64,000 bases of DNA, from the IMG/VR virus record IMGVR_UViG_3300030060_005695, one strand, 5' to 3'. Positions 32,008 to 59,790 of the stretch are shown here, in pieces. The notes beneath the pieces are model-generated. The model did not search any database. It had not been told where the DNA came from and saw only the letters and a program-made list of their open reading frames with translations. The translations under genes and the position numbers were made by a program. The DNA comes from a virus. Each line of letters begins with the position of its first letter. Position 1 is the stretch's first letter.

Positions 32008-32033
32008 ATAGATATTTATAATAAAAAGAAATT

Positions 32034-32984: not shown

Positions 32985-33025
32985 CACTATTTCCTCTAGT
33001 AATCTCAGTACCTATCTTTAAAACT

Positions 33026-33505: not shown

Positions 33506-33525
33506 TAATTGACTAAAATTAAAAT

Positions 33526-33738: not shown

Positions 33739-33739
33739 T

Positions 33740-34549: not shown

Positions 34550-34685
34550 GAAAAAAATAATAGAGGAAATAAAAAAAACTAGTGTCCAGGAAGTGGTAAA
34601 TAGATACACCCAAACCAAAGAAAACTTAGAAAATAAAGAAAATAAAGGGATATGGAACAAAATCAAAAACAGTCTAAAATTCTAG
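34476..34685 (+). CDS. Hypothetical protein
   Basis: 69 aa; overlaps both neighbours. Confidence 0.5.
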   Translation: MEKNKIEEWFRREVSKDQKEILQHKKKIIEEIKKTSVQEVVNRYTQTKENLENKENKGIWNKIKNSLKF

Positions 34686-34885
34686 AAGACTGTGCAACAA
34701 TTGCTGAAAATTTAAAGTTAAATCCCTACGTCAATACCACACAAATTAAATTACACATAAAAGGCAGTCAATTTTTAGAAATATTATCAGAAATAGAAGA
34801 CTACGTTAGAATAAAAGTAGATAGAAATCAAAATAAACTATCAATAGATATTAATGACGTAGAATTTATTTTTATTAAAGATTAA
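34652..34885 (+). CDS. Hypothetical protein
   Basis: 77 aa ORF. Confidence 0.55.
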   Translation: MEQNQKQSKILEDCATIAENLKLNPYVNTTQIKLHIKGSQFLEILSEIEDYVRIKVDRNQNKLSIDINDVEFIFIKD

Positions 34886-35517: not shown

Positions 35518-36519
35518 ATGAATAAAGATTATTACAAAACTCTAAATATCAATAGAAATGCCACTCAAGATGAGATAAAAAAGGCATTTAGGAAATTATC
35601 CAAAACTCATCACCCAGATAAAGGTGGTGATGAAAATACATTTAAAGAACTATCCGAAGCTTACGATACTTTAGGTGATGGTGGTAAACGTGCGGAGTAT
35701 GATAATAAATTAAATAACCCATTTCATGGTAGACAGGGAGGAGGTCCAAACATGGACGACATATTCAATCAATTTTTTGGTGGGAGACAACAACAAAGAC
35801 AACAAAAAAAGGGTAGAAGTTTAAATATACCGTTAACTGTCACCTTAGAAGATGTATTTTTTGGTGAAATTAAAAAATTAAGATATAATAGACAGGTAAA
35901 TTGTACAACTTGTAGAGGTAGTGGTGGTAACTCACACCCGTGTAATATGTGTAAGGGAAGGGGGTTTGTAGAAAAAGCCGTAGGTAATGCTTTTTTTAGG
36001 CAAATCCAAAGGGAACAATGCCCCCAATGTAATGGGTCTGGTAAAATAGTAGTTGAAGCTTGTGGGGGTTGTGGTGGTATAGGCCAAACTAAACAACCCC
36101 AAACTGTAGACTTTAGAATCCCTGTGGACTTAATGACAGGTCAAGTGTTTACCATTAGAAATCATGGGGATGAAATTGATGGTGGTATTCCAGGTGATTT
36201 AAATATACAAGTAGTAATTGCAAGACATCCCCACTTTAAAGTTTTAGACAGAGACTTGGTGTATGATGTAGAAATACCAATAATAGACATGTTATTGGGC
36301 ACAGATTTAGAAATACCACATTTTAGTGGGCCTCTAAAAGCAAAAATACCACCACTTAGTAAAGTTACCGAAAGTTTTAATGTAAGGGGGAAAGGAATGA
36401 ATTCTCAGAGAGGTAAGGGAGACTTAATAATTAAACCACAAGTTAAAATACCTAATTCATTAACAAAAGAGGAAGAAGAGTTACTAATGAATTTAAAAAC
36501 AAAAGAAAATTTTAGTTAG
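35518..36519 (+). CDS. dnaJ: DnaJ chaperone
   Basis: J domain with HPD, G/F region, four CxxCxGxG repeats, C-terminal PGDL/GDL. Confidence 0.95.
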   Translation: MNKDYYKTLNINRNATQDEIKKAFRKLSKTHHPDKGGDENTFKELSEAYDTLGDGGKRAEYDNKLNNPFHGRQGGGPNMDDIFNQFFGGRQQQRQQKKGRSLNIPLTVTLEDVFFGEIKKLRYNRQVNCTTCRGSGGNSHPCNMCKGRGFVEKAVGNAFFRQIQREQCPQCNGSGKIVVEACGGCGGIGQTKQPQTVDFRIPVDLMTGQVFTIRNHGDEIDGGIPGDLNIQVVIARHPHFKVLDRDLVYDVEIPIIDMLLGTDLEIPHFSGPLKAKIPPLSKVTESFNVRGKGMNSQRGKGDLIIKPQVKIPNSLTKEEEELLMNLKTKENFS

Positions 36520-36752
36520 AAGAATGAAACTATAAATCTAATTATAGTGAAGTAACCAATTATCAAAGGAATCCAAGCAAATAGAATTATAACCAAACGT
36601 TCCCACATCCTAAGTTTACCCATTGAAGAGTCCCAAGTCTTCTCTAAGATTTGTTTTTTTCTAGCTTCGGTGTCAAAATTAACATTTGCACCCATCTTAT
36701 TTAACTGTTTTAAATATTTAGAAGTTTTTTCTTTACAATTTTTACAAGCCAT
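36516..36752 (-). CDS. Small membrane protein with N-terminal CxxC
   Basis: MACKNCKEK... plus C-terminal TM; start chosen at the ATG at 36752. Confidence 0.5.
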   Translation of the reverse strand: MACKNCKEKTSKYLKQLNKMGANVNFDTEARKKQILEKTWDSSMGKLRMWERLVIILFAWIPLIIGYFTIIRFIVSFF

Positions 36753-36835
36753 TTGTTTTTCTTTAAACATAAATATTAAGATTTGACAAGTAAATAAAAC
36801 TTGAAAACACCAACAAAATATCTTATTATTAAACC

Positions 36836-38011
36836 ATGGGAGAACAAACAACAATATTTGATATTATAGAAAATGAAGAGATTTTTGACTTTGAAGGTCA
36901 AAAACAAAACTTAATAGACAATCTTGATATGCTTAAAGAAATGTCTGTAGAAGAACAAACACTTTATAAAAAGTGGCAAGAAATGAATAAGGGTGGTAAA
37001 ATGTCTAAGGTAAAGAAAAAGTTAGCCACATACCAAAACAATTTATGGGCACCAACTGACATTACTAATCTAGAAAAAACCATTAAAGAAATAGAGTCAC
37101 TAGAACCTTATGTGGAAATGGCAACACCAGGAAAGGGTGTTACTGAGTGGGTAAACTATCGTAAACTTATCCATACAATGGAATGGGTTGCAAATCCAGG
37201 ACGAAACATGAAATTCTGGGTTAGAGATAGAAAAACTAATAAAGTCCTTGGTTTGATATGTTTAGGGTCTGATGTTACTAGTATTAAAGTTAGAGATGCC
37301 TACATAGGTTGGGATAAAACAAACAAATTCGACCAACATAAATTAAATAATACCGCTATAGCAACAACTATATGCTCCACCCAACCAGGTGGTTATAATA
37401 TGTTAATGGGTAAGTTAGTCGCAGCATTAACTACTTGTAAAGTTATTAGAGATGCTTGGGAAGAAAAATATGGTGATAAACTAATCGCTGTGGGAACAAC
37501 CTCTTTATATGGAATTAACTCAATGTATAATGGAATGCCACATTTTAAAACAATGGGTGAAACATCTGGTAAGGTGAGATTAAAACCAGATGATAGTGCT
37601 TACCTACCTTGGAACAAATGGTTGAAAGATAACCATCCAGAAGAACATAAGAAAGCTATAAGTGCTACAGGACCTAAACAGAACATTCTTAACAAGGTTT
37701 TTAAACATTGTGGTATAAAGGGTTCAGATTATGACCACGGATTCAAGAGAGGGGTCTATCTTGCAATGATGTATGATAATGGTTCTGAGTTTTTAAGGGG
37801 AGAGATAGAAGAGAAAGACCTAAAAATGAAGAAAAAATTCCAAGACGACATTCCATATACAGATAAGTGGTGGAAAAAGAAAGCAATTAGGAGATATAAA
37901 AATATGCACGAACAAGATAGAATTAAACCAGAACAATTATTTTATTGGGATGTTATTGATTTATCATGGGAAGACACAAAAGAAAAATATATAAAAGAAG
38001 TAGGGAGATAA
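36836..38011 (+). CDS. DUF4338 / Druantia DruA-like protein
   Basis: PGRNMKFWVRD...LGLICLGS...RDAYIGW, QPGGYNMLMGKLVA, TTSLYG..SMYN, GETSG. Confidence 0.75.
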   Translation: MGEQTTIFDIIENEEIFDFEGQKQNLIDNLDMLKEMSVEEQTLYKKWQEMNKGGKMSKVKKKLATYQNNLWAPTDITNLEKTIKEIESLEPYVEMATPGKGVTEWVNYRKLIHTMEWVANPGRNMKFWVRDRKTNKVLGLICLGSDVTSIKVRDAYIGWDKTNKFDQHKLNNTAIATTICSTQPGGYNMLMGKLVAALTTCKVIRDAWEEKYGDKLIAVGTTSLYGINSMYNGMPHFKTMGETSGKVRLKPDDSAYLPWNKWLKDNHPEEHKKAISATGPKQNILNKVFKHCGIKGSDYDHGFKRGVYLAMMYDNGSEFLRGEIEEKDLKMKKKFQDDIPYTDKWWKKKAIRRYKNMHEQDRIKPEQLFYWDVIDLSWEDTKEKYIKEVGR

Positions 38012-38012
38012 G

Positions 38013-38207
38013 ATGAACGACACAACATTATTAATAGCATTATTTATTTTAGAAGTAGTAGCCTTCGGATGGTTAATTTGGGAGGCAAAGGTAGGAAGAG
38101 AAAAAAGAGAACAAATAATCCAACTAGAGAATCAAATACTAAAACTAGAAAGAGTTATAATAGCAATGGAAAAAACAATAATTAAAAAAATAGATAAAAA
38201 GAAATAA
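38013..38207 (+). CDS. Small TM + coiled-coil protein
   Basis: N-terminal hydrophobic helix. Confidence 0.55.
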   Translation: MNDTTLLIALFILEVVAFGWLIWEAKVGREKREQIIQLENQILKLERVIIAMEKTIIKKIDKKK

Positions 38208-38208
38208 A

Positions 38209-38769
38209 ATGGAAGAAATATTAATTTACACACAACATTACGCAAATAGTATAACCGAAGTTTATTTAACAGAAGATAAAAAAACAGTAATCCAAAAAAA
38301 ATGTCTATATTCTTCATGTGGTGAATATAGATATGATATAGATGAATACTTGGAGAAAAAAATGGTAGGGTATAGACAAATTAGAAAACAAGTTAATAAA
38401 GTTAATTATATTATAGATATTGACGGGACTATTTGTGATGACATTCCAAATGAACAATTTGAAAGAATGTCTACAGCAAAACCATACCATAATTCGATAG
38501 AAACAATTAATAAATGGTATGAAGAAGGTAATATAATCACATTTTTTACATCGAGAAAAGAAGAACATAGAGAAATTACTGAACAATGGTTAAGAGACAA
38601 TGAAGTAAGATGGCATTATATAATTTTTGGTAAACCAAGAATCCACGAAGACGTTACAGAGTATCATTACATAGACAACCATAAAGTTAGAGCTACTAGG
38701 TATAAAAAAGATAGTGTGTGGGGCGATTTAGTAAGTACAACAAAAGAAATAAAAGTTTTTCCAAAATAA
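38209..38769 (+). CDS. HAD-superfamily phosphatase with N-terminal extension
   Basis: IDIDGTI, FFTSR, TEQWL, FGKP, YIDN. Confidence 0.85.
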   Translation: MEEILIYTQHYANSITEVYLTEDKKTVIQKKCLYSSCGEYRYDIDEYLEKKMVGYRQIRKQVNKVNYIIDIDGTICDDIPNEQFERMSTAKPYHNSIETINKWYEEGNIITFFTSRKEEHREITEQWLRDNEVRWHYIIFGKPRIHEDVTEYHYIDNHKVRATRYKKDSVWGDLVSTTKEIKVFPK

Positions 38770-38805
38770 TACACTAAAATAATAAAAAAGTCGTATATTT
38801 GTAGT

Positions 38806-39054
38806 ATGAAAGAAAGAAACGCATCAAACTGGGATACAATGGATTTTCAAGACTGGGTAGAAAGAAATATACACCTTCTTTTATCCGGTAAACAATTAGA
38901 ATTATTTATGAAAAATAATTTTGGGTATGATGACCTAAAACTTTTTGGTAAAATAAAAGAAGCTGAAAATCTAAAAAGTGTGTACCAATCTAGTATGTTT
39001 GATAAGACAATTACTTATAGTGGTAATTTACAATGGATGAGTATTAATTTTTAA
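38806..39054 (+). CDS. Hypothetical protein
   Basis: 82 aa; TATATTTG at 38794-38801 upstream. Confidence 0.55.
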   Translation: MKERNASNWDTMDFQDWVERNIHLLLSGKQLELFMKNNFGYDDLKLFGKIKEAENLKSVYQSSMFDKTITYSGNLQWMSINF

Positions 39055-39067
39055 AAAATAAAATAAA

Positions 39068-39352
39068 ATGGGTGGAAGTACAACAATGGAAAAAAGAGGT
39101 CACCACATCTGTAAGATGGTGAACTATGAGGTTAGACAAAAAATTACAAGAGAAACCTCGAAGAGAATAGGGGGTAAAATAGTAAAAACTCCAGGTAATG
39201 TAGAAGTTATGATTTACAAGACTAAAAGTAAGATAGAGGGGGGGATGAAAGATATAAAGGTCGCTGCACAAAAAATCTATGATATACTTAAAAAAGAGGG
39301 TAAAACAACAAACATAGACAAAAGAATAGTTAAAAAATACAACTTGGTTTAG
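39068..39352 (+). CDS. Hypothetical basic protein
   Basis: 94 aa ORF. Confidence 0.55.
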   Translation: MGGSTTMEKRGHHICKMVNYEVRQKITRETSKRIGGKIVKTPGNVEVMIYKTKSKIEGGMKDIKVAAQKIYDILKKEGKTTNIDKRIVKKYNLV

Positions 39353-39357
39353 TATTT

Positions 39358-39687
39358 ATGTATATGGAAGTTGATATACAAATCTATTTACAAAAACTTA
39401 AAGAGTTCTTTAAAACTGATAAAGAAGCATTTAGAGATATGTTTGGTTATGGTAAAATAGATATTGATGAGTTTTACAAAATGGTCGCTAAAAAAGCGAC
39501 CATTAACTTTAAAAAGAATGGTGACCCTATGTTAAGTTCTACAGAAATGTTAGAAATAGTTACTGATTTAGCAATACAAGATATAACCCAAGAAATAAAT
39601 GTGGGTGAATTTGTAAAACGTCAACAAGAAATAGAAAAATTATTCGTAAATATTAAAGACGGTTTCCCACCTTTTTGTCTTAATTAA
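39358..39687 (+). CDS. Hypothetical protein
   Basis: 109 aa ORF (start may be 39364). Confidence 0.6.
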   Translation: MYMEVDIQIYLQKLKEFFKTDKEAFRDMFGYGKIDIDEFYKMVAKKATINFKKNGDPMLSSTEMLEIVTDLAIQDITQEINVGEFVKRQQEIEKLFVNIKDGFPPFCLN

Positions 39688-39737
39688 AATCACCCAGTAC
39701 ATATTGACTATATTTTTAACTTTGTTTAAATTTTACT

Positions 39738-40076
39738 ATGTCTAAAGATATTACAAATACTGAAAGAATAGCGAACGAATTACTATTAGAAAAATATAGA
39801 CCACTAATGGTGGTAAAACTATCCAAACCAACTACACTAAGAATAGGAGATTTAGAAAAATTTGCTTTAGATTTAAGTGATAAGAGTGGTTATGAGGTAT
39901 TACTTTTTCCCGACGAAGAAGACACCGATATTAAAATAGTAAGTGTTTGTGACAGCGAGTTTAAAGATATTGAAGAACTTAAAAATTACATCTATAAAAG
40001 ATATGAAACTACATTATTAAGTAATTCTCAATACACAAAAGTAAAAGATTATATAAAAAAAGATAAAAATGAGTAA
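39738..40076 (+). CDS. Hypothetical protein
   Basis: 112 aa ORF. Confidence 0.6.
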   Translation: MSKDITNTERIANELLLEKYRPLMVVKLSKPTTLRIGDLEKFALDLSDKSGYEVLLFPDEEDTDIKIVSVCDSEFKDIEELKNYIYKRYETTLLSNSQYTKVKDYIKKDKNE

Positions 40077-40329
40077 GTACCCTACAAACGAAGAAATAAT
40101 AGAATTTAATCGTAAACAATCAGAAAAGGTAAATCACCCAAATCACTACGGTGGGAAAGATAACCCATATGAAGCTATTAAAGTTATTGAAGCGTGGGAC
40201 TTAGGATTTAACTTAGGTAACACAGTAAAATATATTTCTAGGGCAGGTAAAAAAATTAATACATTGGAAGACTTGGAAAAAGCAAGTTGGTATATAAACA
40301 GAGAAATTAATAAATTAAAAAAAAATTAA
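40069..40329 (+). CDS. DUF3310 family (T7 gp1.7-like nucleotide kinase domain)
   Basis: VNHPNHY...EAI..I...GFNLGNTVKYISRAGKK...EDLEKASWY. Confidence 0.9.
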   Translation: MSKYPTNEEIIEFNRKQSEKVNHPNHYGGKDNPYEAIKVIEAWDLGFNLGNTVKYISRAGKKINTLEDLEKASWYINREINKLKKN

Positions 40330-40332
40330 AAA

Positions 40333-40764
40333 ATGGCAGAAGTACTAATTAATGACAAAGTAAAGACCCACGAAGAGGGCAAACACACTTACATAGGAAA
40401 GTATAAAGGAAAAGATTTTAAAGTGAGTATGGTAGATATGAATGACGAAAGAGAACTGGTCTACATGGAAGGTGAAGAAAATTTCAATGATGAAGACAAA
40501 GATGTAATTTTTGAACAATTAGATGATATGTCTTATGTTGATACATTAGAAGAGGCTGGTGATGATAAAGTTTATGTTGAAAATAATTACGAAACTTGGT
40601 TCGCGTTTAAGTTTGAAGCTTATGGTTCTTATGGTGAACACAAGTTTATAGTAGAAGAGTATAGTGACGAACACGGTGGTGACGCTACATTTCTAGAAGG
40701 TGAGGAAAATTTTAATGAGGAAGAACAGGAATTGATATACGAAGCTGTTAATGAATATATGTAA
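40333..40764 (+). CDS. Highly acidic protein with internal duplication
   Basis: EGEENFNDEDKDVIFEQL / EGEENFNEEEQELIYEAV. Confidence 0.65.
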   Translation: MAEVLINDKVKTHEEGKHTYIGKYKGKDFKVSMVDMNDERELVYMEGEENFNDEDKDVIFEQLDDMSYVDTLEEAGDDKVYVENNYETWFAFKFEAYGSYGEHKFIVEEYSDEHGGDATFLEGEENFNEEEQELIYEAVNEYM

Positions 40765-40778
40765 TAAAAAATTAAAAA

Positions 40779-41207
40779 ATGAAAGGTAAAATTAATACAG
40801 ATAAAGGAACTATGGTGGTAGAGTTCTACGAAAAAGACGCACCAAACACAGTAAACAATTTTGTTAAATTAGCAAAAGAAGGTTTCTATAAAGACCTTAA
40901 TTTTCACAGAGTTATTCCAGGATTCGTAGCACAAGGAGGATGCCCAAATGGAAGAGGTGACGGAGGACCAGGATATAAGATTGATTGTGAGTTAAACGGA
41001 GAAAATCAATTTCACGATAGAGGAGTTCTATCAATGGCACACGCTGGTAGAAATACAGGTGGTTCACAATTTTTTATTGTACATACCAGAAACGCTACAC
41101 AACATTTAGACCGTAATCATACATGTTTCGGGAAAGTAGTTGAAGGGCTAGACGTTATAGAAAAAATACAACAAGGAGACAAATTTAACGTAGAAATAGA
41201 AGACTAA
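40779..41207 (+). CDS. Cyclophilin-type peptidyl-prolyl isomerase
   Basis: [34 protein letters not shown]. Confidence 0.95.
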
Positions 41208-42103
41208 TGAAGAATAGATTATCCCAATATGTAGGTAACACACCCCTTATTCCCATAAGGATTGGTAGATACACAGTATGGGGTAAGGCAGAATTTATGA
41301 ATCCATCCGGTTCTGTAAAAGATAGGATGGCAACTTTTATAATTAACAACGCAGAAAAAAACGGTCTTTTAAGTCCAGGTGATACTATGTGTGAAGCTAC
41401 TAGTGGTAATAGTGGGATAGCATTTGCTATGTTAGCAGCAGAAAGAGGGTATAAGATGGTAATAGTAATGCCATCCAACATGTCTGAAGAAAGAAAAAAA
41501 ATGTTTGAGTATTATGGGGCAGAATTAATTGAGGCACCTGAAGGAGACTTTGATGAAGCTATTAGGATGAGAGATGAACTATGTTACGTTAACGAATGGT
41601 TTAATTGTAATCAGTTCGCCAACCCACTAAATGTCCAAGCACACTACCAAACTACAGGTCCTGAGTTCTACAATCAATACAAAGAAATTAAAGGTGAAAA
41701 ATCATCACCAGCAGTTTTTGTAGCTGGAACCGGGACTGGTGGTACTTTAATGGGTACTGATAAATTTTTAAAAGAAATGTGGCCTAAAATAAAATCAGTA
41801 GCTATTGAACCAGCAGAAAGTGCGGTAATGTCGGGTTTTGAACCTGGGTTACATGGAATACAAGGTATTGGGGACGGAAGTAAATTTTTAGTAAATTTAG
41901 ATGTTGTTTCAGAAGTAAGAATAGTAAGTACAGAATGTGCTAAAGCATGTGCTAGACACTTAGCTAAAAATTATGGATTATTTGTTGGGATAAGTGCAGC
42001 AGCAAATGTATTTGCATCATTCCAGTGGTTAAGAGATAATGATAAAACAGAAGCTATAACGATATTATGTGATAGAGGAGAAAGGTATTTTAGTTGTATG
42101 TAA
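41207..42103 (+). CDS. cysK: Cysteine synthase (PLP-dependent)
   Basis: GNTPL, NPSGSVKDR, EATSGNSG, GTGTGGT, IQGIG, DRGERY. Confidence 0.92.
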   Translation: MKNRLSQYVGNTPLIPIRIGRYTVWGKAEFMNPSGSVKDRMATFIINNAEKNGLLSPGDTMCEATSGNSGIAFAMLAAERGYKMVIVMPSNMSEERKKMFEYYGAELIEAPEGDFDEAIRMRDELCYVNEWFNCNQFANPLNVQAHYQTTGPEFYNQYKEIKGEKSSPAVFVAGTGTGGTLMGTDKFLKEMWPKIKSVAIEPAESAVMSGFEPGLHGIQGIGDGSKFLVNLDVVSEVRIVSTECAKACARHLAKNYGLFVGISAAANVFASFQWLRDNDKTEAITILCDRGERYFSCM

Positions 42104-42166
42104 ATAACTAGAGTTTATTTATAGAGTAAGTCGTTTATGATTATATTTATTGTAAACGACTTTTTT

Positions 42167-42952
42167 ATGCGTATAATAATCACAGAAAACCAATATACTA
42201 AACTTGTAGAACAAGTTGGTGTTAGTTGTGTACCTACTGGAGAAACAGAATTTAACGAGGTAGATGTCTCTTTTTATGACATGGTAAGAAATGGTAGTAT
42301 ATTAAATTATGGTGATTATGATTTAGATAAAACACACCCAATATACGTTATTCAAAAAAAATTAGGTATAAGTAGAGATGGTTATTATGGTAAAGACATG
42401 TTGAAAGCATTATCTACTAAATTAAACATAGATTTATGTAAACAAATAAATAACAATATTCCATTAGGACCTAACGGTTTAAAAAAATTAGGACTTTATG
42501 TGAACATTCCTAAAGATGATGAAGATTATATTTTAGCTTCTACTTTAGTTGGTGAAAATCAAAGAGCTGGAACAAAAGAACTAAATGCGATACTATCCAC
42601 AATAAAAAACCGAGCAGATAAATGCGGATATAGTATGAAAGACTCTGTATTAAAAGGAAAACAATACTCTACTTGGAACTACTTTAATAGATTAGATAAT
42701 GAAGGTAAGTTTGAGGAGTTACACAATAGGATAACTAACCAAAAAGTAAAAGGTTTTGATAAAATGTTAAAAATAGTTGAAGGCTTTGGTGATGGGGATG
42801 TTATTAAAGTTAATCACTACGTTAACCCTAGTATAGTAGATTTAAGTACGGGTAGTACTAGAACTATCGCTAAATCTTACAATAACAATAAAAAGTCAGC
42901 TAAGAAAATAGGTGACCATATATTTTGGTGGGATAAAAGACATCCGTGTTAA
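42167..42952 (+). CDS. SleB/Hydrolase_2-like cell wall hydrolase with PG-binding-like segment and N-terminal leader
   Basis: IQKKLGISRDGYYG (PG binding), LASTLVGE, IKNR, QYSTWN, IGDHIF; start MRIIITENQ at 42167. Confidence 0.75.
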   Translation: MRIIITENQYTKLVEQVGVSCVPTGETEFNEVDVSFYDMVRNGSILNYGDYDLDKTHPIYVIQKKLGISRDGYYGKDMLKALSTKLNIDLCKQINNNIPLGPNGLKKLGLYVNIPKDDEDYILASTLVGENQRAGTKELNAILSTIKNRADKCGYSMKDSVLKGKQYSTWNYFNRLDNEGKFEELHNRITNQKVKGFDKMLKIVEGFGDGDVIKVNHYVNPSIVDLSTGSTRTIAKSYNNNKKSAKKIGDHIFWWDKRHPC

Positions 42953-42977
42953 TCAAATAAGTAGATATTTATATAAT

Positions 42978-44423
42978 ATGAAAATCGAGATAACAGCAAA
43001 ACAATTAGAACTTATTAATGAGTCACTTATAAATGAAGGTGGGATTAGAGACATTAATAAGTTAGCTCAAAGATACCCAAAGGCAGAAATATATTTTCAC
43101 CAGGATTTAGATGGGGTGGTATCCGCTTTAGGGATGAAGAACTACTTAGAAAAATATGGTATAGAAGTTATCGACACCCATGTAATACAATATGGTGACA
43201 AAGAATTTTCAGTAAAAAAACCACAAGCTAGTGAAGATGTAATGCCAGTATTAGTAGATTTTGCACACGGGAAACCAATATTTAAAATCCATACAGACCA
43301 CCACGATTCACAAGCAGGGGTAGAAGATGATACTGCAACACAATTTAGAGGAGCAAGGTCAAACGTAGAAACTATTTCACAAACTATAAGTCCTAGTGAT
43401 ATTTTTACGGATGAAGATATAATGATGATTAATACTGTAGATTCTGCGGATTATGCAAAACACGATATTGAACCAGAACAAGTAATGAATCTAATTAGAG
43501 ATTTTGAATCTGGTGACCAGACTTACGAAAAAAGATGGATGTTAGGTCTTTTAACTAATAAATTATTATTAGCTTATAAAAATAAACCAGGATTCCTAGA
43601 ACATCTAGTTATGAATTCTTCACCATCCTTGATGAATATCTACCAAAACATAACCTCATACGCAAAAGAAAAAGGTTTTGCTTCACCAGAAGAAATGGCA
43701 CAAAATCAAGCAGAATATATAAAATCCCAACAAGAAAGTGATAATCTAAATTTAGATGGTAATATAATAGTACAATATGGAGGTGGTAGATTATTTAAAC
43801 CAGGTTCCTATGATAGATACACACCATTCAAAATTTATCCTGACGCTGACTTTTTTGTGGTGGCGTGGCCAATGGGACTTGTACAAGCTTCGTGTAATCC
43901 ATTCAAAAAAGACAGAGCTCTTAAAGGTGTTAACTTAGGTGATATAGCACAAGAAGTACTTAAAGAAGTGGAACCACAACTTAAAAAACACCAAGTACCA
44001 GTCTCTGTGATTAAAAGAATAGGGGAGACAAAAGCAGAAGGAGAAAGTATTGGGTTTAAAACTTCAGACTTATTCGCTCTCTATAAAGACCACCTACAAA
44101 ATATGCCATCAACAGATTCTAAATACTATGATATGGCGGTTAGTATAATTGACACACCATGGGACAAGTTGAGTGAAAAACAAAAAGCAGTTTTAGATAA
44201 GATAACTGTACCAGCTTGGGATGTTATACAAGCTAATAGTGGCGGTCACAAATGTATAACTAATATTAGTGGGTTAAATTTCTTTAGTAGAGCAACTAGA
44301 CAACCAGAAGGACCTTACAAGAAAAAATCAGACGCCAAACCAACAAGATATGTAGAATTTGTAAAATGGGTACAGAAAGAAATGGTTAAGAAAATTAAAG
44401 AAAATATAGACGCTAATCAGTAA
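42978..44423 (+). CDS. DHH-family phosphoesterase with N-terminal leader
   Basis: HQDLDG, LVDF, TDHH, C-terminal SGGH; start MKIEITAKQ at 42978. Confidence 0.8.
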   Translation: MKIEITAKQLELINESLINEGGIRDINKLAQRYPKAEIYFHQDLDGVVSALGMKNYLEKYGIEVIDTHVIQYGDKEFSVKKPQASEDVMPVLVDFAHGKPIFKIHTDHHDSQAGVEDDTATQFRGARSNVETISQTISPSDIFTDEDIMMINTVDSADYAKHDIEPEQVMNLIRDFESGDQTYEKRWMLGLLTNKLLLAYKNKPGFLEHLVMNSSPSLMNIYQNITSYAKEKGFASPEEMAQNQAEYIKSQQESDNLNLDGNIIVQYGGGRLFKPGSYDRYTPFKIYPDADFFVVAWPMGLVQASCNPFKKDRALKGVNLGDIAQEVLKEVEPQLKKHQVPVSVIKRIGETKAEGESIGFKTSDLFALYKDHLQNMPSTDSKYYDMAVSIIDTPWDKLSEKQKAVLDKITVPAWDVIQANSGGHKCITNISGLNFFSRATRQPEGPYKKKSDAKPTRYVEFVKWVQKEMVKKIKENIDANQ

Positions 44424-49390: not shown

Positions 49391-50092
49391 ATGATAGACC
49401 AAATACAGACTAATAAATTATTATTTATAGATATTGAGACGTGTGGTTGTTACGCAACTTTAGATGAGGTAAAAGAAAAAAATACTACTTTATTTAATTT
49501 GTGGAATAAAATGGGTGATTCTTATTTTAGAAGACACTATCCTGAGGATTTAAGAATGTCTGAAGGTGAATTATTTAAAAAATACTCTGGTTTATTACCA
49601 GAATTTGGGAGAGTAGTTTGTGTAAGTGCTGGTTTTATAACAGGAGAAGATAGAAAAATACAATCATTCACAAAAGGGGGAGAAGACGACATTTTAAAAG
49701 AAACGGTAGAACTACTTAACAGGGTAAATAAATTAGGTTTTTCTCTTTGTGGTCATAATATTAAAACTTTTGATTTACCTTATTTAGGTAAAAGAATGTT
49801 AATAAACAAGATTAAACCATCACCTATAATGCCTTCTCATGACACCAAACCCTGGGAAATAAAAGCATTGGACACCAAAGAACTCTGGAACTTTGGTTCG
49901 TACAAAGGTTTGTCAGCCTTACACTTAATATGTAGTGTGTTAGGTTTTGAAACCCCTAAAGATGGAAAAGTAGATGGTTCTAACATCCATAAAAGTTATT
50001 ACATGGATAATAATATTTCAGAGATAAAAGAATATTGTGAAAAAGATGTAAATGCATTGATGGATATAGTTTCTCACGTAAAATCTCTATAA
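49391..50092 (+). CDS. PolB-type 3'-5' exonuclease (DEDD)
   Basis: FIDIET, GHNIKTFDLPYL, YCEKDV. Confidence 0.9.
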   Translation: MIDQIQTNKLLFIDIETCGCYATLDEVKEKNTTLFNLWNKMGDSYFRRHYPEDLRMSEGELFKKYSGLLPEFGRVVCVSAGFITGEDRKIQSFTKGGEDDILKETVELLNRVNKLGFSLCGHNIKTFDLPYLGKRMLINKIKPSPIMPSHDTKPWEIKALDTKELWNFGSYKGLSALHLICSVLGFETPKDGKVDGSNIHKSYYMDNNISEIKEYCEKDVNALMDIVSHVKSL

Positions 50093-52529: not shown

Positions 52530-53963
52530 ATGAATCTAATCGACGCTTTACAAACAAAAGACACACTGACAGAAAATGGTATGAGTACAAACTCATCCTC
52601 TTTAAATCACTGTGTCAATCTTTTTTTCCAAATCGGAGCAATGCGAGGTATGGATAAGAAGAGACTACTCGCCAAAGTCTCTAAAGCGTTTAATGAAGAC
52701 CCTCTCACAACAATTAAAATTATTTTTTGGACACGTGATGTCCGTGGTGGAGCTGGTGAGAGACAAATCTTCAGAGATTGTTTATTATGGTTATGTGACA
52801 ACCACAGAAATGTACTTAATAAAAACATTCACTTAATTAGTGAATACGGTAGATGGGATGATGTATTAACATTAGTGGGTACAATGAATTGTTGGGAATC
52901 TGCTTTACACATAATTAAAACTGCGTTAGACAAACAAGATGGGTTATGTGCAAAGTGGATGCCAAGAAAAGGACCAAAAGCGAATATTATTCGTAGGTAT
53001 TTAAAATTGTCACCCAAACAATATCGTAAGTTATTAGTAGGACTTACAAATGTGGTTGAAACCAAGATGTGTGCAAAGGACTGGTCAAGTATCGAGTATT
53101 CGAAACTTCCGTCCCTAGCATCGTCAAGGTATCAGAAAACTTTCATGAAGAATGACGAGGAGAGGTATGAGGAGTACAAAAGAGCTTTAGTTGATGGTAA
53201 AACTACCATCAACTCTGGAGCTATATACCCTTATGACATTACTAAATCCATTAAATATGGTGGAGAAAAGGATGTTGCACAAGCACAATGGGAGTCTCTT
53301 CCAAATTACATGGAAGGAATTAGTGAAAGAGTGTTACCTGTAGTTGATACCTCAGGTTCAATGACTACATCAGCAGGAAATAACGGTAAAGTTACTTGTA
53401 TGGATGTGTCAACATCATTGGGTCTGTATATCTCAGAGAGAAACGAAGGTGTATTCAAAAACACATTCATAACCTTCTCTTCGAGACCACAACTACAATT
53501 ACTTGAAGGTTCGTTAGCCGATAGGTTAGACCAACTGGAGAGAGCAGATTGGGGAATGAATACTGATTTAAAAGCAACGTTTGAGTTAATCTTGGACCAA
53601 GCAGTAAAACATAATGTTCCACTATCACAGATGCCAACCAAAGTTCTTGTCCTTTCGGATATGGAGTTTGATGAAGCAATTGGTAGTAGAATGTATGATA
53701 TATCAGATTGGAATCCAACTGCACAAGAAATGATTAAAGGGATGTATGAGGAAGCTGGTTACGAAATGCCAGGAATTGTTTACTGGAATATCCAAAGTAG
53801 ACAAGACAATGTACCAACTCGTTTCGACGAGATGGGAACAGCATTAGTATCAGGATTCTCACCCTCAATCATGAAAAGTATTTTAAGCTGTGAGGAACTT
53901 ACTCCTTATAATATGATGATGGAGACTATTGGGTCCGCTCGATACGAATCTATTACGGTCTAA
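52530..53963 (+). CDS. DUF2828 family TROVE/Ro60-like protein with C-terminal vWA domain
   Basis: TENG, RDVRGGAGER, EYGRWDD, AKWMPR, VVDTSGSM (MIDAS), WGMNTD, LSDMEFD, VSGFS. Confidence 0.88.
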   Translation: MNLIDALQTKDTLTENGMSTNSSSLNHCVNLFFQIGAMRGMDKKRLLAKVSKAFNEDPLTTIKIIFWTRDVRGGAGERQIFRDCLLWLCDNHRNVLNKNIHLISEYGRWDDVLTLVGTMNCWESALHIIKTALDKQDGLCAKWMPRKGPKANIIRRYLKLSPKQYRKLLVGLTNVVETKMCAKDWSSIEYSKLPSLASSRYQKTFMKNDEERYEEYKRALVDGKTTINSGAIYPYDITKSIKYGGEKDVAQAQWESLPNYMEGISERVLPVVDTSGSMTTSAGNNGKVTCMDVSTSLGLYISERNEGVFKNTFITFSSRPQLQLLEGSLADRLDQLERADWGMNTDLKATFELILDQAVKHNVPLSQMPTKVLVLSDMEFDEAIGSRMYDISDWNPTAQEMIKGMYEEAGYEMPGIVYWNIQSRQDNVPTRFDEMGTALVSGFSPSIMKSILSCEELTPYNMMMETIGSARYESITV

Positions 53964-54120: not shown

Positions 54121-54175
54121 AGGAAGATTACTGCAATCTTTACAATTACTAAAATTAAATTGAAACCTCTTCCTG
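54121..54175 (+). ncRNA. Second candidate RNA sharing the AG-stem/TT(A)CnGCAA/stem-CTG motif
   Basis: AGGAAGA/TCTTCCT+G stem enclosing TTACTGCAA. Confidence 0.45.
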
Positions 54176-54213
54176 AGAATCCTCGTATTTAACCATACGG
54201 GGATTTTTCTTTT
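54176..54213 (+). terminator. Rho-independent terminator
   Basis: AATCCTCGTAT-TTAACC-ATACGGGGATT followed by T run. Confidence 0.75.
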
Positions 54214-54241
54214 ATGAGAATTTTTTCTATATTTATTATAT

Positions 54242-54802
54242 ATGAGAAAGTTATTAACAATATTACTAATGGTGTTGTCGTTTACATCCTATTCACAATG
54301 TGTAATTAATCAGTCACATGTTATATCTCCAGCTGGTCCTTATTCTCCAGGACAAACTGTGACAGTGTGGTATACACTACAAGATTATACCGGGATAAAT
54401 ATAAACTGGATACATGCCATCCAAATCAATCTAGGAATTGGGTGGGTGAACCTAACACCAACACAAGCTCCAGGTAATCCATTAGGCTCAACAGGTAATT
54501 GGTTGTGGGATTTACAACATACATACCCCGGAGGGTTTAACTTTGGGCCAGGTTGGAGATTTGTTAATGCAGGAACAGCTGGATGGGGAACCAGTTCTAA
54601 CGGTCCATTTATCACTAGTTTTCAAATAACAGTTGGACAAACATGTACAAACGAAGATTTAAGTATTAGTATAGAGGTTTTCGATGATTGTACAACAGGA
54701 GGTTGGGCTAACGGAAATTGTTGTAACGACCCAGCATATCAAATATACAACGGAACCGTTCAAGTAGTGATACCCACTACATCGAACATAAATCATTATT
54801 AA
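54242..54802 (+). CDS. Secreted beta-rich protein
   Basis: Signal peptide ending YSQ; C-terminus PTTSNINHY. Confidence 0.75.
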   Translation: MRKLLTILLMVLSFTSYSQCVINQSHVISPAGPYSPGQTVTVWYTLQDYTGININWIHAIQINLGIGWVNLTPTQAPGNPLGSTGNWLWDLQHTYPGGFNFGPGWRFVNAGTAGWGTSSNGPFITSFQITVGQTCTNEDLSISIEVFDDCTTGGWANGNCCNDPAYQIYNGTVQVVIPTTSNINHY

Positions 54803-54813
54803 AAAAATAAATT

Positions 54814-55353
54814 ATGAAAAGAATTTTAACAGTTTTATTAATCCTAATAGGATTAACGACTTACGGTCAAACAACAATCAACCCAGACACAGTATGTGCA
54901 AACGCAGTAGGTGAACAGTATTTTGTTACTAATACCCCTACATCAACTTATAACTGGACTATCACAGGTGGTGGTGGTGTTTTACAAACAGGACAAGGAA
55001 CCAATTCAATCACAGTAGATTGGGGAGGTGTTAGTGGACTTTTTCCAAACGCTGTTGAAGTTATTGAAACCAATGCAGCCAACTGTCCTGGAACACCCGT
55101 ATTATTAGATGTGTTTGTACTAGATTTAAATGGGAATGCAATTGGACCATTCTGTCCAGGAGACCCAACAACTCCATTAGTAGGAACACCAGCAGGTGGA
55201 ACATGGTCAGGAACAGGTGTAGTAGCAAATTCATTCCAACCATCAACAGGGGTGGGGAATTACGTATTAACTTATTCTATGGCTGGTTGTAACACAACAA
55301 TAAATGTGGTCGTTAATAACGGACCAGTTACAGGACCAATCCAACACTACTAA
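54814..55353 (+). CDS. Secreted PKD-like domain protein
   Basis: Signal peptide ending YGQ; STYNWTITGG...GQGTNSITVDW; GTPAGGTWSGTGV; ends PVTGPIQHY. Confidence 0.8.
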   Translation: MKRILTVLLILIGLTTYGQTTINPDTVCANAVGEQYFVTNTPTSTYNWTITGGGGVLQTGQGTNSITVDWGGVSGLFPNAVEVIETNAANCPGTPVLLDVFVLDLNGNAIGPFCPGDPTTPLVGTPAGGTWSGTGVVANSFQPSTGVGNYVLTYSMAGCNTTINVVVNNGPVTGPIQHY

Positions 55354-55354
55354 T

Positions 55355-55885
55355 ATGAGATGGTTAGTATATATACTACTACCACTTCAATTATTTGCTC
55401 AAGAAACTTACACTAATTGTGAGGGGATAGCACCACAAAATTATCAAGTAAGTTATGATGCGGATAAGGTATATTATTGGGATATAATAGGTGGAGAAAT
55501 ACTATACAATAATAATAATTCTATTACTGTACAATGGCCTGATTCTATAGGTACCTATATTTTATCGGTACACACAACTAGATTTGGTTGTGAAGGAGAT
55601 ACATCCTACCATGAAGTAATTGTGGAGGATTGTCCTTATCTACAAATATTTGTGCCTAACTCGTTCACACCAAACCAGGACGATTACAATGAAACATTTT
55701 ATGTTCACGGTGCTGATAAAGACGATATAGAGTTAATGGTTATATATAATAGATGGGGTGAAGTGATATATCAAACAACAGATAACATTCCATGGGATGG
55801 AAAGAATTGCCAGGTAGGGGTCTACACATACTCGATTAGGACACACAACCAACATTATACAGGACACGTTACTTTGATAAGGTAG
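55355..55885 (+). CDS. Secreted PKD-like protein with T9SS type B (gliding-motility/CHU_C) sorting domain
   Basis: IFVPNSFTPNQDDYNETF, IYNRWGEVIY, WDG, GVYTY, GHVTLIR; signal peptide ending FAQ. Confidence 0.9.
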   Translation: MRWLVYILLPLQLFAQETYTNCEGIAPQNYQVSYDADKVYYWDIIGGEILYNNNNSITVQWPDSIGTYILSVHTTRFGCEGDTSYHEVIVEDCPYLQIFVPNSFTPNQDDYNETFYVHGADKDDIELMVIYNRWGEVIYQTTDNIPWDGKNCQVGVYTYSIRTHNQHYTGHVTLIR

Positions 55886-55991
55886 TTTGAACTTGTAAGA
55901 TTTTGAAAATCAAAAATAATCTAATAGTGGACAATCTTAATTATTTTTTCTATTTATTATATGAAATAATAATTAAATTAAAAATTAAAAA

Positions 55992-56783
55992 ATGAAAAGA
56001 ATTTTATTAGCACTATTAGTCTTGCTTGGACTACAAACACAAGCACAAATCAATCTTTGTGACTCAATGACTGCATCGGGAGCACAAACTCAGCTAGTAC
56101 TCCAAGTTAATAATGCAAATACATTTATTGATTATTGGTGTACAAATTCCACATGTGGTTCATTACTAGGAGAGGATAGTATGAGTTTATATCATAATGT
56201 ATATAACTCAAACCTTCATGATACAATTGTTACTTGTATTACTTATGGTATGGGAGCCACTAATACATGTTGTGTAACCTGGATATGGGATGCAAATATG
56301 TGGTTAAAAATGAGTATGCAACAACAACCTTATTTTTGTTGTGACTCAATAACATACTGGACAGACCAAAGTCAAGGATTAACTGTTGGTCTTGATACAA
56401 CAAACATGGTTCATAATCCTGACTCTATGACAGTATACTGGGGAGTATGTACTGGATATGCAGGAGCTGGTATATGTTATGCAGGAAATGGTATAAGTGA
56501 TTATTTTCCTCAAGTCACAACATCAGATACAATAAAGGTTGGTTATGATGTGTCTATTTACGAAAATGGTTCAGTAGAATACTGTAGTATGGAAGAATGG
56601 TTAATATTTGACCAAAACACATATTCATGGGTATTACTTAATATGTTACCAACTTCAATAAATGAATTAACATTTAATAGAAGTAATGATGGTAAAATTT
56701 ATGATTTACTAGGTAGAGAATTAACTGAAATACCAGTAGGTAAATTATATATTAGAAATCAAAAATTATATATTACTAGATAA
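55992..56783 (+). CDS. Secreted protein with short T9SS type A-like C-terminal domain
   Basis: Signal peptide ending QAQ; TSINE...KIYDLLGREL...GKLYIRNQKLYI. Confidence 0.75.
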   Translation: MKRILLALLVLLGLQTQAQINLCDSMTASGAQTQLVLQVNNANTFIDYWCTNSTCGSLLGEDSMSLYHNVYNSNLHDTIVTCITYGMGATNTCCVTWIWDANMWLKMSMQQQPYFCCDSITYWTDQSQGLTVGLDTTNMVHNPDSMTVYWGVCTGYAGAGICYAGNGISDYFPQVTTSDTIKVGYDVSIYENGSVEYCSMEEWLIFDQNTYSWVLLNMLPTSINELTFNRSNDGKIYDLLGRELTEIPVGKLYIRNQKLYITR

Positions 56784-56805: not shown

Positions 56806-56837
56806 AAACCGAAACTTAAAACTTTCGGTTTTTTTTT
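56806..56837 (+). terminator. Rho-independent terminator
   Basis: AAACCGAAA/TTTCGGTTT hairpin plus T run. Confidence 0.75.
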
Positions 56838-56850: not shown

Positions 56851-57756
56851 ATGAACTTAGGATATGCTTGTATAAACATGACACTTGGGGGACAGAAACC
56901 CAAGATTACTACTAATAGGTCTATGATTAAAAAAACCTTTATAGATAGGGGTATAGACTATGCGGGAGAACTTTCCCTACTTAATTCCAGAGATTTATGT
57001 GAAATAGTAAAATGGAATGTAGAGAACGGAATTAATTTTTTTAGAATCTCTTCCGATATTTTTCCTTGGGCGTCAGAATACAACATAGAAGACCTACCTC
57101 AATATCAAAGAATCAAGACTGTTCTTTCTAGTTGTGGTAATTACGCTAGAGATAATGGTGTTAGATTAACTTCACACCCAGGACCATTTAATGTCCTGGT
57201 TTCACCCCGAGAACATGTGGTACAAAATACAATAACGGACCTAACCAACCACGGTAAGGTATTTGATTTACTGGGACTAGATAGAACACCATACAATAAA
57301 ATCAATATACATTGTAATGGTGTATATGGGGATAAACAATCTGCTCTAGATAGATTCTGTAAAAACTTTGAGTTACTTCCTGAATCAGTACAGACACGTC
57401 TTACAGTTGAAAATGATGATAAGGCAACTATGTACTCAGTAAAAGACTTAATGTATATACATGAACGTATTGGTATTCCTATTGTATTTGATTATCACCA
57501 CCATAAGTTTTGTACGGGTGACATGACAGAACAAGAAGCCCTTGAGTTAGCCATCTCTACATGGCCTAAAGGTATAACACCAGTGGTGCATTATTCAGAG
57601 TCCAAAGCTTTACACGAAAGTAATGATAAATTAAAACCACAAGCACACTCAGACTACATAAATGACCTACCAAATACATATGGTAATAAGGTAGATATTA
57701 TGGTGGAATCTAAAGCAAAAGAATTGTCTATTTTACCTCACATAAATTTAATATAG
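56851..57756 (+). CDS. uvsE: UV damage endonuclease
   Basis: LGYACIN, FFRISSD, RLTSHPG, RLTVENDD, VFDYHHH, HYSES, AHSDY, MVESKAKE. Confidence 0.95.
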   Translation: MNLGYACINMTLGGQKPKITTNRSMIKKTFIDRGIDYAGELSLLNSRDLCEIVKWNVENGINFFRISSDIFPWASEYNIEDLPQYQRIKTVLSSCGNYARDNGVRLTSHPGPFNVLVSPREHVVQNTITDLTNHGKVFDLLGLDRTPYNKINIHCNGVYGDKQSALDRFCKNFELLPESVQTRLTVENDDKATMYSVKDLMYIHERIGIPIVFDYHHHKFCTGDMTEQEALELAISTWPKGITPVVHYSESKALHESNDKLKPQAHSDYINDLPNTYGNKVDIMVESKAKELSILPHINLI

Positions 57757-58485: not shown

Positions 58486-59790
58486 ATGAACGAAAGCAAA
58501 GATTTAAAAAGAATACAAGAATTTGTGGATAAACTAAAAGCCACCAACTCAACTAATGATAAGATTGATATTATTAAAGAGTACAAGGATGACTATCTGA
58601 TTAACCAGGTTTTAAAATACACATATTCACCATTCAAACAATTTCATTTAACTAGTACAACAGTAAAGAAGAATAAAAAATTAGAATCTAAAATAGGTTA
58701 TAATGATTTGTTTTATTTGTTGGACGCATTAAGTAAACGTACGATAACAGGACATGACGCAATCCAGTATACCAAAGGTTATATTGCTGCTATGGAGGAT
58801 TGGCAAAAAGATTTAATATTCTGTATTTTAGATAAAAACTTAAAGACAAGAACGGGAGCGGACCTAATCAACAAAGCAATTCCAAAATGTGTCCCTACTT
58901 TCAAGGTAGCACTAGCTAACTCTTATGATAAACAAAAGGGTAAAGTTGATTTTAATAAACAAACTTGGTTCGCCTCCCAAAAGTTAGACGGTGTAAGATG
59001 TTTAGCGATAGTAGATGAAAATGGTAAATGTAATTTCTATTCAAGACAAGGTAAAACATTTGATACTTTAGATACCCTTAGAAAAGAAATAGAGAGTTTA
59101 GGACTAACTAATGTTGTATTTGATGGTGAGGTATGTATTGTGGATGATAATGGTGTAGAAGACTTCCAAGGGATTATGAAGGAAATTAAAAGAAAAGACC
59201 ACACCATTGAAAATCCTAAATATAAAATATTTGATTATCTTACACTAGAAGAATTTGACACACAAACCAGTACAAGAAATTTAAGTTTAAGATTAAGTAC
59301 TTGTGTTAGACCTAAACTAAATTGTATAGAAATGTTAGAACAATGGAAAGTAGAGTCAGATGAACACTTCCAAGAGTTGGCAGAACTAGCAACTAAAAAT
59401 AACTGGGAAGGTTTAATGTTACGTAAAGATTGTGAGTACAAAGGAAAAAGAAGTAATGACTTATTAAAAGTTAAGAAATTCTTTGATGAAGAATATGTGG
59501 TAAAAGGTGTTGAAGTTGCGGTTCACAGAATTATTGTAGATGGTTTAGAAGTAGAAGAAGAAATGTTAAGTAACGTTATAATAGAACATAAGGGTTGTGA
59601 AGTAAGAGTAGGTTCTGGTTTTGACCATGAAGAAAGAAGAATGTATTATGTTCCTGATTTTCACCCAGACAGTTTAGTCGGAAAAACAATTACAGTACAA
59701 TACTTTGAAGAAACCCTTAACCAGGATGGTTGTCACTCATTAAGATTTCCCGTTGTAAAACATGTGTATGATGGGGAGAGAACTACTTAA
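58486..59790 (+). CDS. ATP-dependent DNA ligase
   Basis: QKLDGVR, FDGE, IFD, EGLMLR, LLKVK, VGSGF, LRFP. Confidence 0.95.
   Translation: MNESKDLKRIQEFVDKLKATNSTNDKIDIIKEYKDDYLINQVLKYTYSPFKQFHLTSTTVKKNKKLESKIGYNDLFYLLDALSKRTITGHDAIQYTKGYIAAMEDWQKDLIFCILDKNLKTRTGADLINKAIPKCVPTFKVALANSYDKQKGKVDFNKQTWFASQKLDGVRCLAIVDENGKCNFYSRQGKTFDTLDTLRKEIESLGLTNVVFDGEVCIVDDNGVEDFQGIMKEIKRKDHTIENPKYKIFDYLTLEEFDTQTSTRNLSLRLSTCVRPKLNCIEMLEQWKVESDEHFQELAELATKNNWEGLMLRKDCEYKGKRSNDLLKVKKFFDEEYVVKGVEVAVHRIIVDGLEVEEEMLSNVIIEHKGCEVRVGSGFDHEERRMYYVPDFHPDSLVGKTITVQYFEETLNQDGCHSLRFPVVKHVYDGERTT

Follow-up and report, generated by a model that had tools for sequence, protein, structure and literature searches.

We analyzed a 64,000-nucleotide stretch of DNA (the window) from IMG/VR virus record IMGVR_UViG_3300030060_005695, in which four genes for secreted proteins, p1 to p4, follow one another on the plus strand at positions 54242 to 56783. 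As judged from sequence comparisons, the first three encode the three subunits of one split adhesin of the T9SS (type IX secretion system), with a C-terminal domain (CTD) of type B on p3 and a short C-terminal tag on each of p1 and p2. This tripartite tagged architecture is common to the bacterial host, to single-chain phage genes, and to several phage lineages, and it is the main interest of the cassette; phage-borne T9SS cargo as a general idea has already been published. We lean toward the view that a single small cell-surface adhesin is built from p1 as head, p2 as adaptor, and p3 as anchor, the three being chained by the tags and exported by host machinery by way of the p3 CTD.

The p1 to p3 genes and their single-chain homologue

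The cassette lies between two terminator-like hairpins, of which the 5' one (54175 to 54208, plus strand; a 14-pair stem and then a T run) closes a preceding Ro/noncoding RNA unit and the 3' one (56806 to 56831, plus strand) is bidirectional. The head subunit, p1 (54242 to 54802, plus strand, 186 amino acids), comprises a signal peptide (residues 1 to 18), a β-sandwich head domain of about 155 residues, and a tag formed by its final 9 residues (54773 to 54799), ending in NINHY. The adaptor subunit, p2 (54814 to 55353, plus strand, 179 amino acids), has a signal peptide, a PKD_6 domain, a second Ig-like domain, and a tag (55324 to 55350) that ends in PIQHY. The anchor subunit, p3 (55355 to 55885, plus strand, 176 amino acids), consists of a signal peptide (residues 1 to 15), a PKD-like domain (55400 to 55648), and the T9SS type B CTD (55649 to 55882). 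The p3 start is the ATG at 55355 in homologues, none of which uses the in-frame ATG at 55304.

All four N termini of the cassette show a basic n-region, a hydrophobic core of 10 to 12 residues, and a Gln at +1, with predicted cleavage at S18|Q19 in p1, G18|Q19 in p2, A15|Q16 in p3, and A18|Q19 in p4. Signal peptides were called by a hydropathy heuristic, inspection, and conservation; in family alignments the +1 Gln is invariant or nearly so, and the A15|Q16 site of p3 is kept in 7 of 7 locus homologues. A Gln at +1 is the "Q-rule" of Bacteroidota signal peptidase I substrates (PMC5837995), so the N termini also indicate a host in that phylum.

The type B assignment of p3 is firm. It scores 45 bits against TIGR04131 (cut-off 35), matching model positions 3 to 85 of 85 and ending at the final residue, and 46.8 bits against PF13585 (cut-off 27). 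The match is full length, and the strings FTPN, YNRWG, WDG, G-x-Y, and a final L-I-R are all present; secretion by type B CTDs requires five conserved motifs, A to E (PMC12618676). The p3 family comprises 243 clusters, nearly all of 176 amino acids and all with PF13585. In p2, residues 21 to 88 match PF19408 (PKD_6) at 31.7 bits (cut-off 25). No Pfam or NCBIfam match was found for p1, and an exhaustive phmmer search identified its domain as the N-terminal head of many long SprB-repeat/PKD/CHU_C proteins with type B CTDs. These results agree with the first-pass annotation of this DNA on three counts, namely, that four consecutive secreted proteins lie between two terminators, that all four have Sec signal peptides exposing a (conserved) N-terminal Gln, and that one of them ends in a type B CTD.

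The annotation had read the genes as four independent cargos, and here our analysis departs from it, since p1 to p3 are collinear with a single protein and p4 is a separate unit. The single protein, P0269 (522 amino acids), has the architecture head, PKD, Ig, PKD, CHU_C, and p1, p2, and p3 match it in order and without overlap: p1 matches residues 1 to 185, p2 matches residues 199 to 332 (34% identity, E value of 2e-15), and p3 matches residues 359 to 522 (35% identity, E value of 4e-20). Its family has 691 members at an E value of ≤1e-5 and is found in IMG/VR contigs whose neighboring genes resemble those of G002, a 297,623-bp relative of the window. One gene in related phages thus appears to correspond to three signal-peptide genes in the window lineage. 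Wherever the sequence of the eight related loci extends far enough, the three genes are neighbors, in the order p1-p2-p3 or p2-p3-p1. Joining of p2 and p3 by frameshifting was considered and rejected, as p3 has its own signal peptide and is elsewhere followed by p1, and a role as virion decoration proteins was rejected given the Sec signal peptides and the CTD.

An AlphaFold2 (AF2) model of P0269, with a predicted local distance difference test score (pLDDT) of 87.4, resolves the chain into head (residues 20 to 185), PKD (187 to 273), Ig (275 to 342), PKD (343 to 431), and CTD (432 to 522). The modeled CTD overlays the NucA CTD of a SprA translocon complex (8glk_D) with a Z score of 8.9 and a root mean square deviation (rmsd) of 1.9 over 72 of 75 residues, and it superposes on the PorZ CTD, too. 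The head domain matches Gram-positive pilin and adhesin domains at Z scores of 8.4 to 9.2, a range common for the method and one on which we do not rely. The best whole-model match to P0269 is GhpA, the grappling-hook protein of Aureispira (9flp; Z score of 10.3, 379 residues), at an rmsd of 11.5 Å over a flexible Ig-like chain, which amounts to a generic tandem resemblance and not to shared function.

The C-terminal tags and a proposed route of assembly

The subunits that have no CTD, whether from the window, from a bacterial operon in metagenome-assembled genomes (MAGs), or from unrelated phage modules, all end in Phi-x-H-[N/Y/F/D]-COOH. Across phage variants the p1 and p2 endings are fixed apart from Y/F, and the two tags share the pattern P-x-T-x-x-I-x-H-Y. 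Such endings are specific to the module: p1 and p2 are the only examples among the 89 open reading frames (ORFs) of the window, and their two homologues are the only ones among the 416 ORFs of G002. Of 150 representative head-domain proteins, 19 have a Phi-x-H-[N/Y/F] C terminus, about 30 have a type B CTD there, and some have one of type A; the tag and the two kinds of CTD are apparently alternative endings of head-domain proteins.

The position of the tag can be read from the single-chain family. The tag Ile aligns with two positions of the single chain, I194 (in 62 of 64 sequences) and I349 (in 57 of 64), the p1 tag falling on linker 1 of P0269 with its Ile on the near-invariant I194. The positions after this Ile are variable in single chains and are a fixed H-[Y/N] in the tags. 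Structural matches of PKD and Ig domains to the P0269 model begin at residues 185 to 189 and 343 to 345 (VIA-align), which makes the tag-equivalent segments the N-terminal edge of the PKD domain that follows. Mature adaptors and anchors have only 5 to 9 residues ahead of their first conserved Cys, which puts their N termini level with the Ile or beyond it, and at junction 2 the fit is clean, with mature p3 beginning where the p2 tag ends.

What we observed directly comprises the gene structure, the CTD, the homologies, the conservation of the tags, the tag-equivalent position in the model, and the set of T9SS genes in candidate hosts. For p1 to p3 we infer tag-based assembly, co-export, anchoring, and a role in infection, along the following lines. 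The phage would make the three proteins in the infected cell, each would cross the inner membrane by Sec, and signal peptidase I would expose the Gln on each subunit. The tag would supply the missing first strand segment of the N-terminal PKD-like domain of the next subunit, and by completing that domain in a donor-strand complementation it would link head to adaptor and adaptor to anchor. Completion of the next PKD domain is the most likely function of the tag because that domain starts just past the tag-equivalent segment. The host T9SS would then recognize the type B CTD of p3, the whole complex would follow, and a host PorP/SprF-type shuttle would hold the p3 CTD at the surface. The cassette would be a shortened copy of a host three-gene operon and of the one-gene forms in related phages. 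It would probably serve to alter the adhesion or exposure of the infected cell, for example through particle attachment, receptor masking, or superinfection exclusion; to name surface remodeling or superinfection exclusion as the infection role is a guess on our part.

Type B cargos need PorP/SprF-like shuttles, and orphan cargos share an unlinked one (PMC12618676). The gene for a cognate shuttle usually neighbors that of its cargo. Given the orphan precedent, p3 is still eligible as a type B cargo with no shuttle gene adjacent to it. No PorP/SprF gene stands beside the cassette, and none scores over the cut-off in the 93%-complete genome of G002, so a host shuttle would be needed.

The proposed assembly resembles that of the type V pili (FimA/Mfa1) of Bacteroidota and of chaperone-usher pili, in which a terminal strand completes the incomplete Ig-like fold of a neighbor. 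The likeness would be one of mechanism only, with no sequence relationship. Type V pilins are lipoproteins that are proteolytically activated and form homopolymers. The cassette is unlike them in having three distinct subunits and a CTD anchor, and polymerization is not indicated.

Several points weigh against a tag-chained adhesin. The binding of a tag to the next subunit rests on single-chain models and alignment. Junction 1 is not clean, in that the p1 tag and the mature p2 N terminus overlap by about 5 aligned positions. In the literature we found no published precedent for proteins without a CTD being carried through the T9SS by a partner. According to a study as cited in PMC10202324, type B CTD regions did not suffice for secretion when shorter than about 200 residues; mature p3 has only about 160. 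Finally, the adjacency of the genes says little about the order of assembly because phages vary between p1-p2-p3 and p2-p3-p1.

It is also conceivable, but we think rather unlikely, that the tag acts on its own as a C-terminal signal for sorting or processing, recognized by a host machine, with p1 and p2 exported or attached independently of p3. The reader could be a PDZ protease or chaperone of the periplasm, a transpeptidase of the sortase kind such as PorU, or a T9SS adaptor. The terminal His and Asn/Tyr/Phe/Asp of the tags are far more conserved than the equivalent single-chain positions, which suggests recognition of a free terminus; moreover, tags replace type A or type B CTDs on head-domain proteins, and a P-x-T-G-like string occurs in many of them. 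However, tagged proteins were always found beside a CHU_C anchor whose N-terminal PKD lacks the Ile-bearing segment, the tag is homologous to a segment that is intramolecular in single-chain domains, and the module encodes no candidate reader. As for the earlier suggestion that the phage encodes proteins for the host T9SS, it is supported for p3 and is plausible for the set as a whole.

The module in phages and in marine Flavobacteriales

Relatives of p3 are present in eight independent IMG/VR contigs, among them G002, which has a CheckV completeness of 93% and encodes a T4-type Gp23 capsid protein (PF07068, 211.6 bits). A capsid gene is absent from the 64-kb window itself. Nearly all flanking ORFs of ≥70 amino acids, on both sides of the cassette, have a G002 homologue, as do all of the immediate neighbors except a UvdE-like gene, and window positions 1 to 40 kb are collinear with G002 positions 116 to 72 kb. 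Through this syntenic relative and the flanking genes, the lineage is identified as a T4-like (Gp23-type) jumbo phage. From 40 to 64 kb, the window is a mosaic relative to G002, in which almost every gene has a homologue at positions scattered over the whole genome, and the cassette is accordingly located in a rearrangement-prone accessory region, unlike the collinear first 40 kb.

It is scarcely credible that the cassette is host DNA misassembled onto phage DNA or that the contig is bacterial. The genes are host-like, p1 being up to 60% identical to a MAG gene. However, the eight contigs are independent and include the Gp23-encoding genome, and GC content is uniform across the window at about 31%. 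Since G002 homology flanks the cassette on both sides, a chimeric assembly is very unlikely, and the phage setting of the cassette is confirmed.

In GenBank phages, a blastn search with window positions 52.1 to 60 kb matched only short stretches of Ro genes, and tblastn with p1 or p3 matched only two uncultured huge phages; these searches therefore gave no cultured phage with a known host that carries the module. An uncultured huge phage of 642 kb (LR756502.1, positions 513500 to 520500; locus L053) encodes a single chain of 1670 amino acids that combines a type B CTD with a p1-like domain and a signal peptide, which indicates that huge phages also carry large T9SS type B adhesins.

The module is not confined to the window lineage. 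Scans of IMG/VR contigs with two distant stand-alone heads, P0263 and P0287, yielded contigs that range in GC content from 31 to 47% and differ in their neighboring genes. Five of six such contigs encode a tagged head of about 200 amino acids, a small signal-peptide protein, and a signal-peptide CHU_C protein of 187 to 191 amino acids; in the sixth (L049), only adaptor and anchor are found among the ORFs. The small adaptor ends in T-G-x-I-T-H-D or in I-E-H-N, and the CHU_C domains of the anchors match at E values of 1e-21 to 3e-29 in a local hidden Markov model search. The tripartite tagged type B adhesin module is thus a trio of signal-peptide proteins, namely, a tagged head, a tagged adaptor led by a PKD domain, and a CHU_C anchor led by a PKD domain. 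Modules of this definition occur in the window, in host MAGs, and in other phage contigs, and single-chain equivalents exist.

The bacterial counterpart was found in a scan of a genome collection with the head-domain protein P0246. The resulting loci are from MAGs of uncultured marine Flavobacteriales/Cryomorphaceae, one of them on a contig of 1,057,045 bp. Four loci (L027 to L029 and L033) contain a full three-gene operon, located 3' of guaA and a LysM gene and 5' of lolA and a long gene where the contig extends; two more (L034 and L037) show genes 2 and 3 ahead of lolA. In these operons (for example, that of CALSUJ010000001.1 at about 604 to 608 kb), gene 1 encodes a signal peptide, a p1-like head, SprB/GEVED or Ig_7 domains, and the ending I-x-H-N; gene 2 encodes a signal peptide, PKD_6 through Ig_7, and the ending G-P-I-x-[H/F/Y]-N; and gene 3 encodes a signal peptide, PKD_6, PKD, and CHU_C. 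Operon and cassette share the head-adaptor-anchor order, the tag consensus, the PKD_6 starts, and the CHU_C domain on the third gene. Identities to the operon proteins are 48 to 60% for p1 (heads), 32 to 39% for p2 (gene 2), and 33 to 39% for p3 (gene 3). The bacterial subunits differ in being 2 to 4 times longer, with extra SprB repeats and GEVED, Ig_7, and PKD domains, and their tags mostly end in H-N, whereas those of the window phage lineage end in H-Y/F.

T4-like phages make periplasmic exclusion proteins, T4 Spackle and Imm being models of the kind, and this raises the question of whether only p3 uses the T9SS. In such a scheme, p1 and p2, which have signal peptides and no CTD, would be cotranscribed periplasmic effectors that block envelope functions or the entry of superinfecting DNA. 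The homologies make this improbable: p1 shares 48 to 60% identity with the head domain in a surface adhesin subunit of the host, homologous heads form the tip of SprB-repeat/CHU_C proteins, and hundreds of natural proteins fuse the three parts in that order.

The host operon also bears on the idea, raised in the first-pass annotation, that p3 is a decoy, a minimal substrate that saturates the host type B shuttle or translocon and so stops adhesin export or gliding. It is true that p3 is minimal, with one PKD-like domain and a CTD, that it is conserved at exactly 176 amino acids, and that it must compete for the host shuttle, as the phage has none of its own. However, an anchor of this kind is found in the host operon too, so the small size of p3 is explained by its role as an anchor subunit. 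As p3 is always accompanied by a head and an adaptor, jamming is the less likely explanation, and we give the decoy little credence, although competition for the shuttle is possible as a side effect of a head-adaptor-anchor adhesin.

The candidate host genomes are small, at 1.5 to 1.7 Mb, and each encodes 45 to 55 type A CTDs and 3 to 6 PorP/SprF genes, from which the candidate hosts appear to be T9SS proficient. The head domain was found in 6 of 61 sampled genomes of the order (G007, G019, G036, G052, G053, and G065), all within this size range. Small-genome marine Flavobacteriales are the likely hosts. As the head domain occurs only in 1.5- to 1.7-Mb genomes among those sampled, its distribution narrows the range of clades that this widespread and uncultured lineage of jumbo phages is likely to infect and may point to its hosts.

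Comparison with known systems sets the cassette apart. The type B CTD adhesins of Flavobacterium johnsoniae, among them SprB, Fjoh_3952, and orphan cargos, work with PorP/SprF-like shuttles (PMC12618676, PMC9143113). They resemble the cassette in the Sec signal peptide, the C-terminal TIGR04131/PF13585 domain, the combination of PKD, SprB-repeat, and Ig domains, and the need for a PorP/SprF-type shuttle, and the orphan cargos are similar also in having no adjacent shuttle gene. However, the F. johnsoniae cargos are single chains, whereas here there are three secreted polypeptides, two of them tagged and without a CTD, that are phage borne and miniaturized. Among phages, "Cryophage" has type A sorting domains on enzymes or on a PA14 protein (PMC7468147), and crAss-like contigs have BACON/T9SS sorting-domain ORFs of unstated CTD type (PMC6949934). 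In both cases, sorting-domain genes lie in variable regions of Bacteroidota phages, and the authors proposed a hijacking of host secretion, but no type B anchor, multisubunit architecture, tags, or host operon counterpart was reported. Our search of the literature turned up no account of the tag, of the host operon, or of a type B adhesin in split form.

A broader proposal, which we put forward tentatively and regard as possible but short of probable, is that the Phi-x-H-[N/Y/F/D] tag defines an unrecognized T9SS route. Proteins without a CTD would be exported and anchored by noncovalent completion of the split PKD-like domain of a partner, so that a complex of three proteins travels on one type B CTD. 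The original owners of the system would be streamlined marine Flavobacteriales, from which phages would have repeatedly captured and miniaturized it to re-dress the infected cell. T9SS cargo is now predicted by CTD search. If the proposal is true, the secretomes predicted for marine Bacteroidota lack a class of tagged surface proteins, the T9SS translocon must handle preassembled complexes, and large marine phages copy a host surface structure piece by piece. The module also offers a testable handle on changes in adhesion or receptor display in infected Flavobacteriales that are abundant and uncultured.

p4, the upstream element, and surrounding genes

The fourth gene, p4 (55992 to 56783, plus strand, 263 amino acids), encodes a signal peptide, two Ig/FnIII-like β-sandwiches (residues 20 to 107 and 116 to 215), a disordered linker, and a conserved short C-terminal tail (56646 to 56780, plus strand). 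In G002, a p4-like gene of 172 amino acids stands after the Ro gene, and the homologues of p1 to p3 are about 240 kb away, so p4 is a separate unit. We read it as a secreted protein with two Ig-like domains that may be coregulated.

The first-pass annotation had described p4 as ending in a short type A-like CTD. A conserved C-terminal module of 45 residues is indeed present, but type A models and the type A fold both fail to describe it. No Pfam or NCBIfam match was found for p4, no match to TIGR04183 or PF18962 appeared even at an E value of ≤1, and seven other proteins with a p4-type tail gave no match at an E value of ≤10 (NCBIfam only), although the same models readily pick out genuine CTDs of type A from G002 and from host genomes. 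The AF2 model of p4 (pLDDT of 77) contains the two Ig/FnIII-like sandwiches, the disordered linker (residues 218 to 232, pLDDT of 30), and a 30-residue β tail with just a few short strands (residues 233 to 263). A type A CTD is a compact 3+4 seven-stranded Ig-like β-sandwich (PMC11285876), and as modeled the p4 tail does not form such a sandwich. Comparison of 108 p4-type tails with 11 type A CTDs by hhalign aligned a Y-D-x-x-G-R strand only (14 columns, probability of 31%, P value of 5e-4); in the same set-up, type A compared with type B CTDs gave a probability of 26%.

The tail recurs elsewhere. It is present on secreted G002 proteins (a 432-amino-acid thioredoxin-like protein and a 335-amino-acid protein), forms the extreme C terminus of signal-peptide proteins in host MAGs, and matches the C terminus of the GH43 enzyme 4kca_A (E value of 0.0039), a GH43 arabinanase from a rumen metagenome (PMC11813348). 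It is probably a compact C-terminal sorting or attachment module, possibly one related to the T9SS. A Foldseek search with the p4 model returned only generic FnIII or cytokine-receptor tandems and no functional lead, and the p4 family has 1174 metagenomic, viral-looking relatives, none with a Pfam domain. The family (P0053 to P0120) includes a form of about 260 amino acids with both sandwiches and a form of about 170 amino acids with the second only. Signal peptide and tail are the same in both, which suggests gain or loss of a domain.

An A/T-rich element of 20 nucleotides, a candidate promoter, occurs in nearly identical copies upstream of p1 and p4. Copy 1 (54222 to 54241, plus strand) abuts the p1 ATG, and copy 2 (55943 to 55962, plus strand) ends 30 nucleotides 5' of p4. 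Its core 12-mer, TATTTATTATAT, has only two sites in the window, one in copy 1 and one at 55951 to 55962, and strings like TATTTATA precede homologous modules in other contigs. The string TATTTATA is the reverse complement of TATAAATA, an orientation that is not canonical for a T4 late promoter. The element may represent a class of phage promoter that coregulates secreted-protein genes.

PHROG matches lie on either side of the cassette. They comprise an exonuclease (49391 to 50092), a Ro60/TROVE-like protein (52530 to 53963), a UvdE-like endonuclease (56851 to 57756), an ATP-dependent ligase (58486 to 59790), and, more distant from the cassette, an SbcC-like protein (23766 to 26093). At the far end of the window, large ORFs of 1321, 1182, and 802 amino acids (48 to 16050) have no PHROG or Pfam match, and the 1321-amino-acid ORF is not a type A CTD protein. 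Among these ORFs, one of 260 amino acids (11688 to 12470) matches the dockerin type I/EF-hand-like family PF00404 at 28.6 bits (cut-off 22.9), and the region also gave a match to DUF1398 below the cut-off.

G002 carries an envelope-gene cluster that is missing from the window (32099 to 43320, minus strand; loci L010, which spans G002 positions 20001 to 40000, and L011). It encodes a 1321-amino-acid protein whose CTD is a genuine one of type A (TIGR04183, 44.5 bits), the secreted thioredoxin-like protein of 432 amino acids that has the short p4-type tail, and signal-peptide proteins of 801, 445, and 184 amino acids, the first two of which end like outer membrane β-barrels. The G002 lineage invests heavily in host-envelope proteins.

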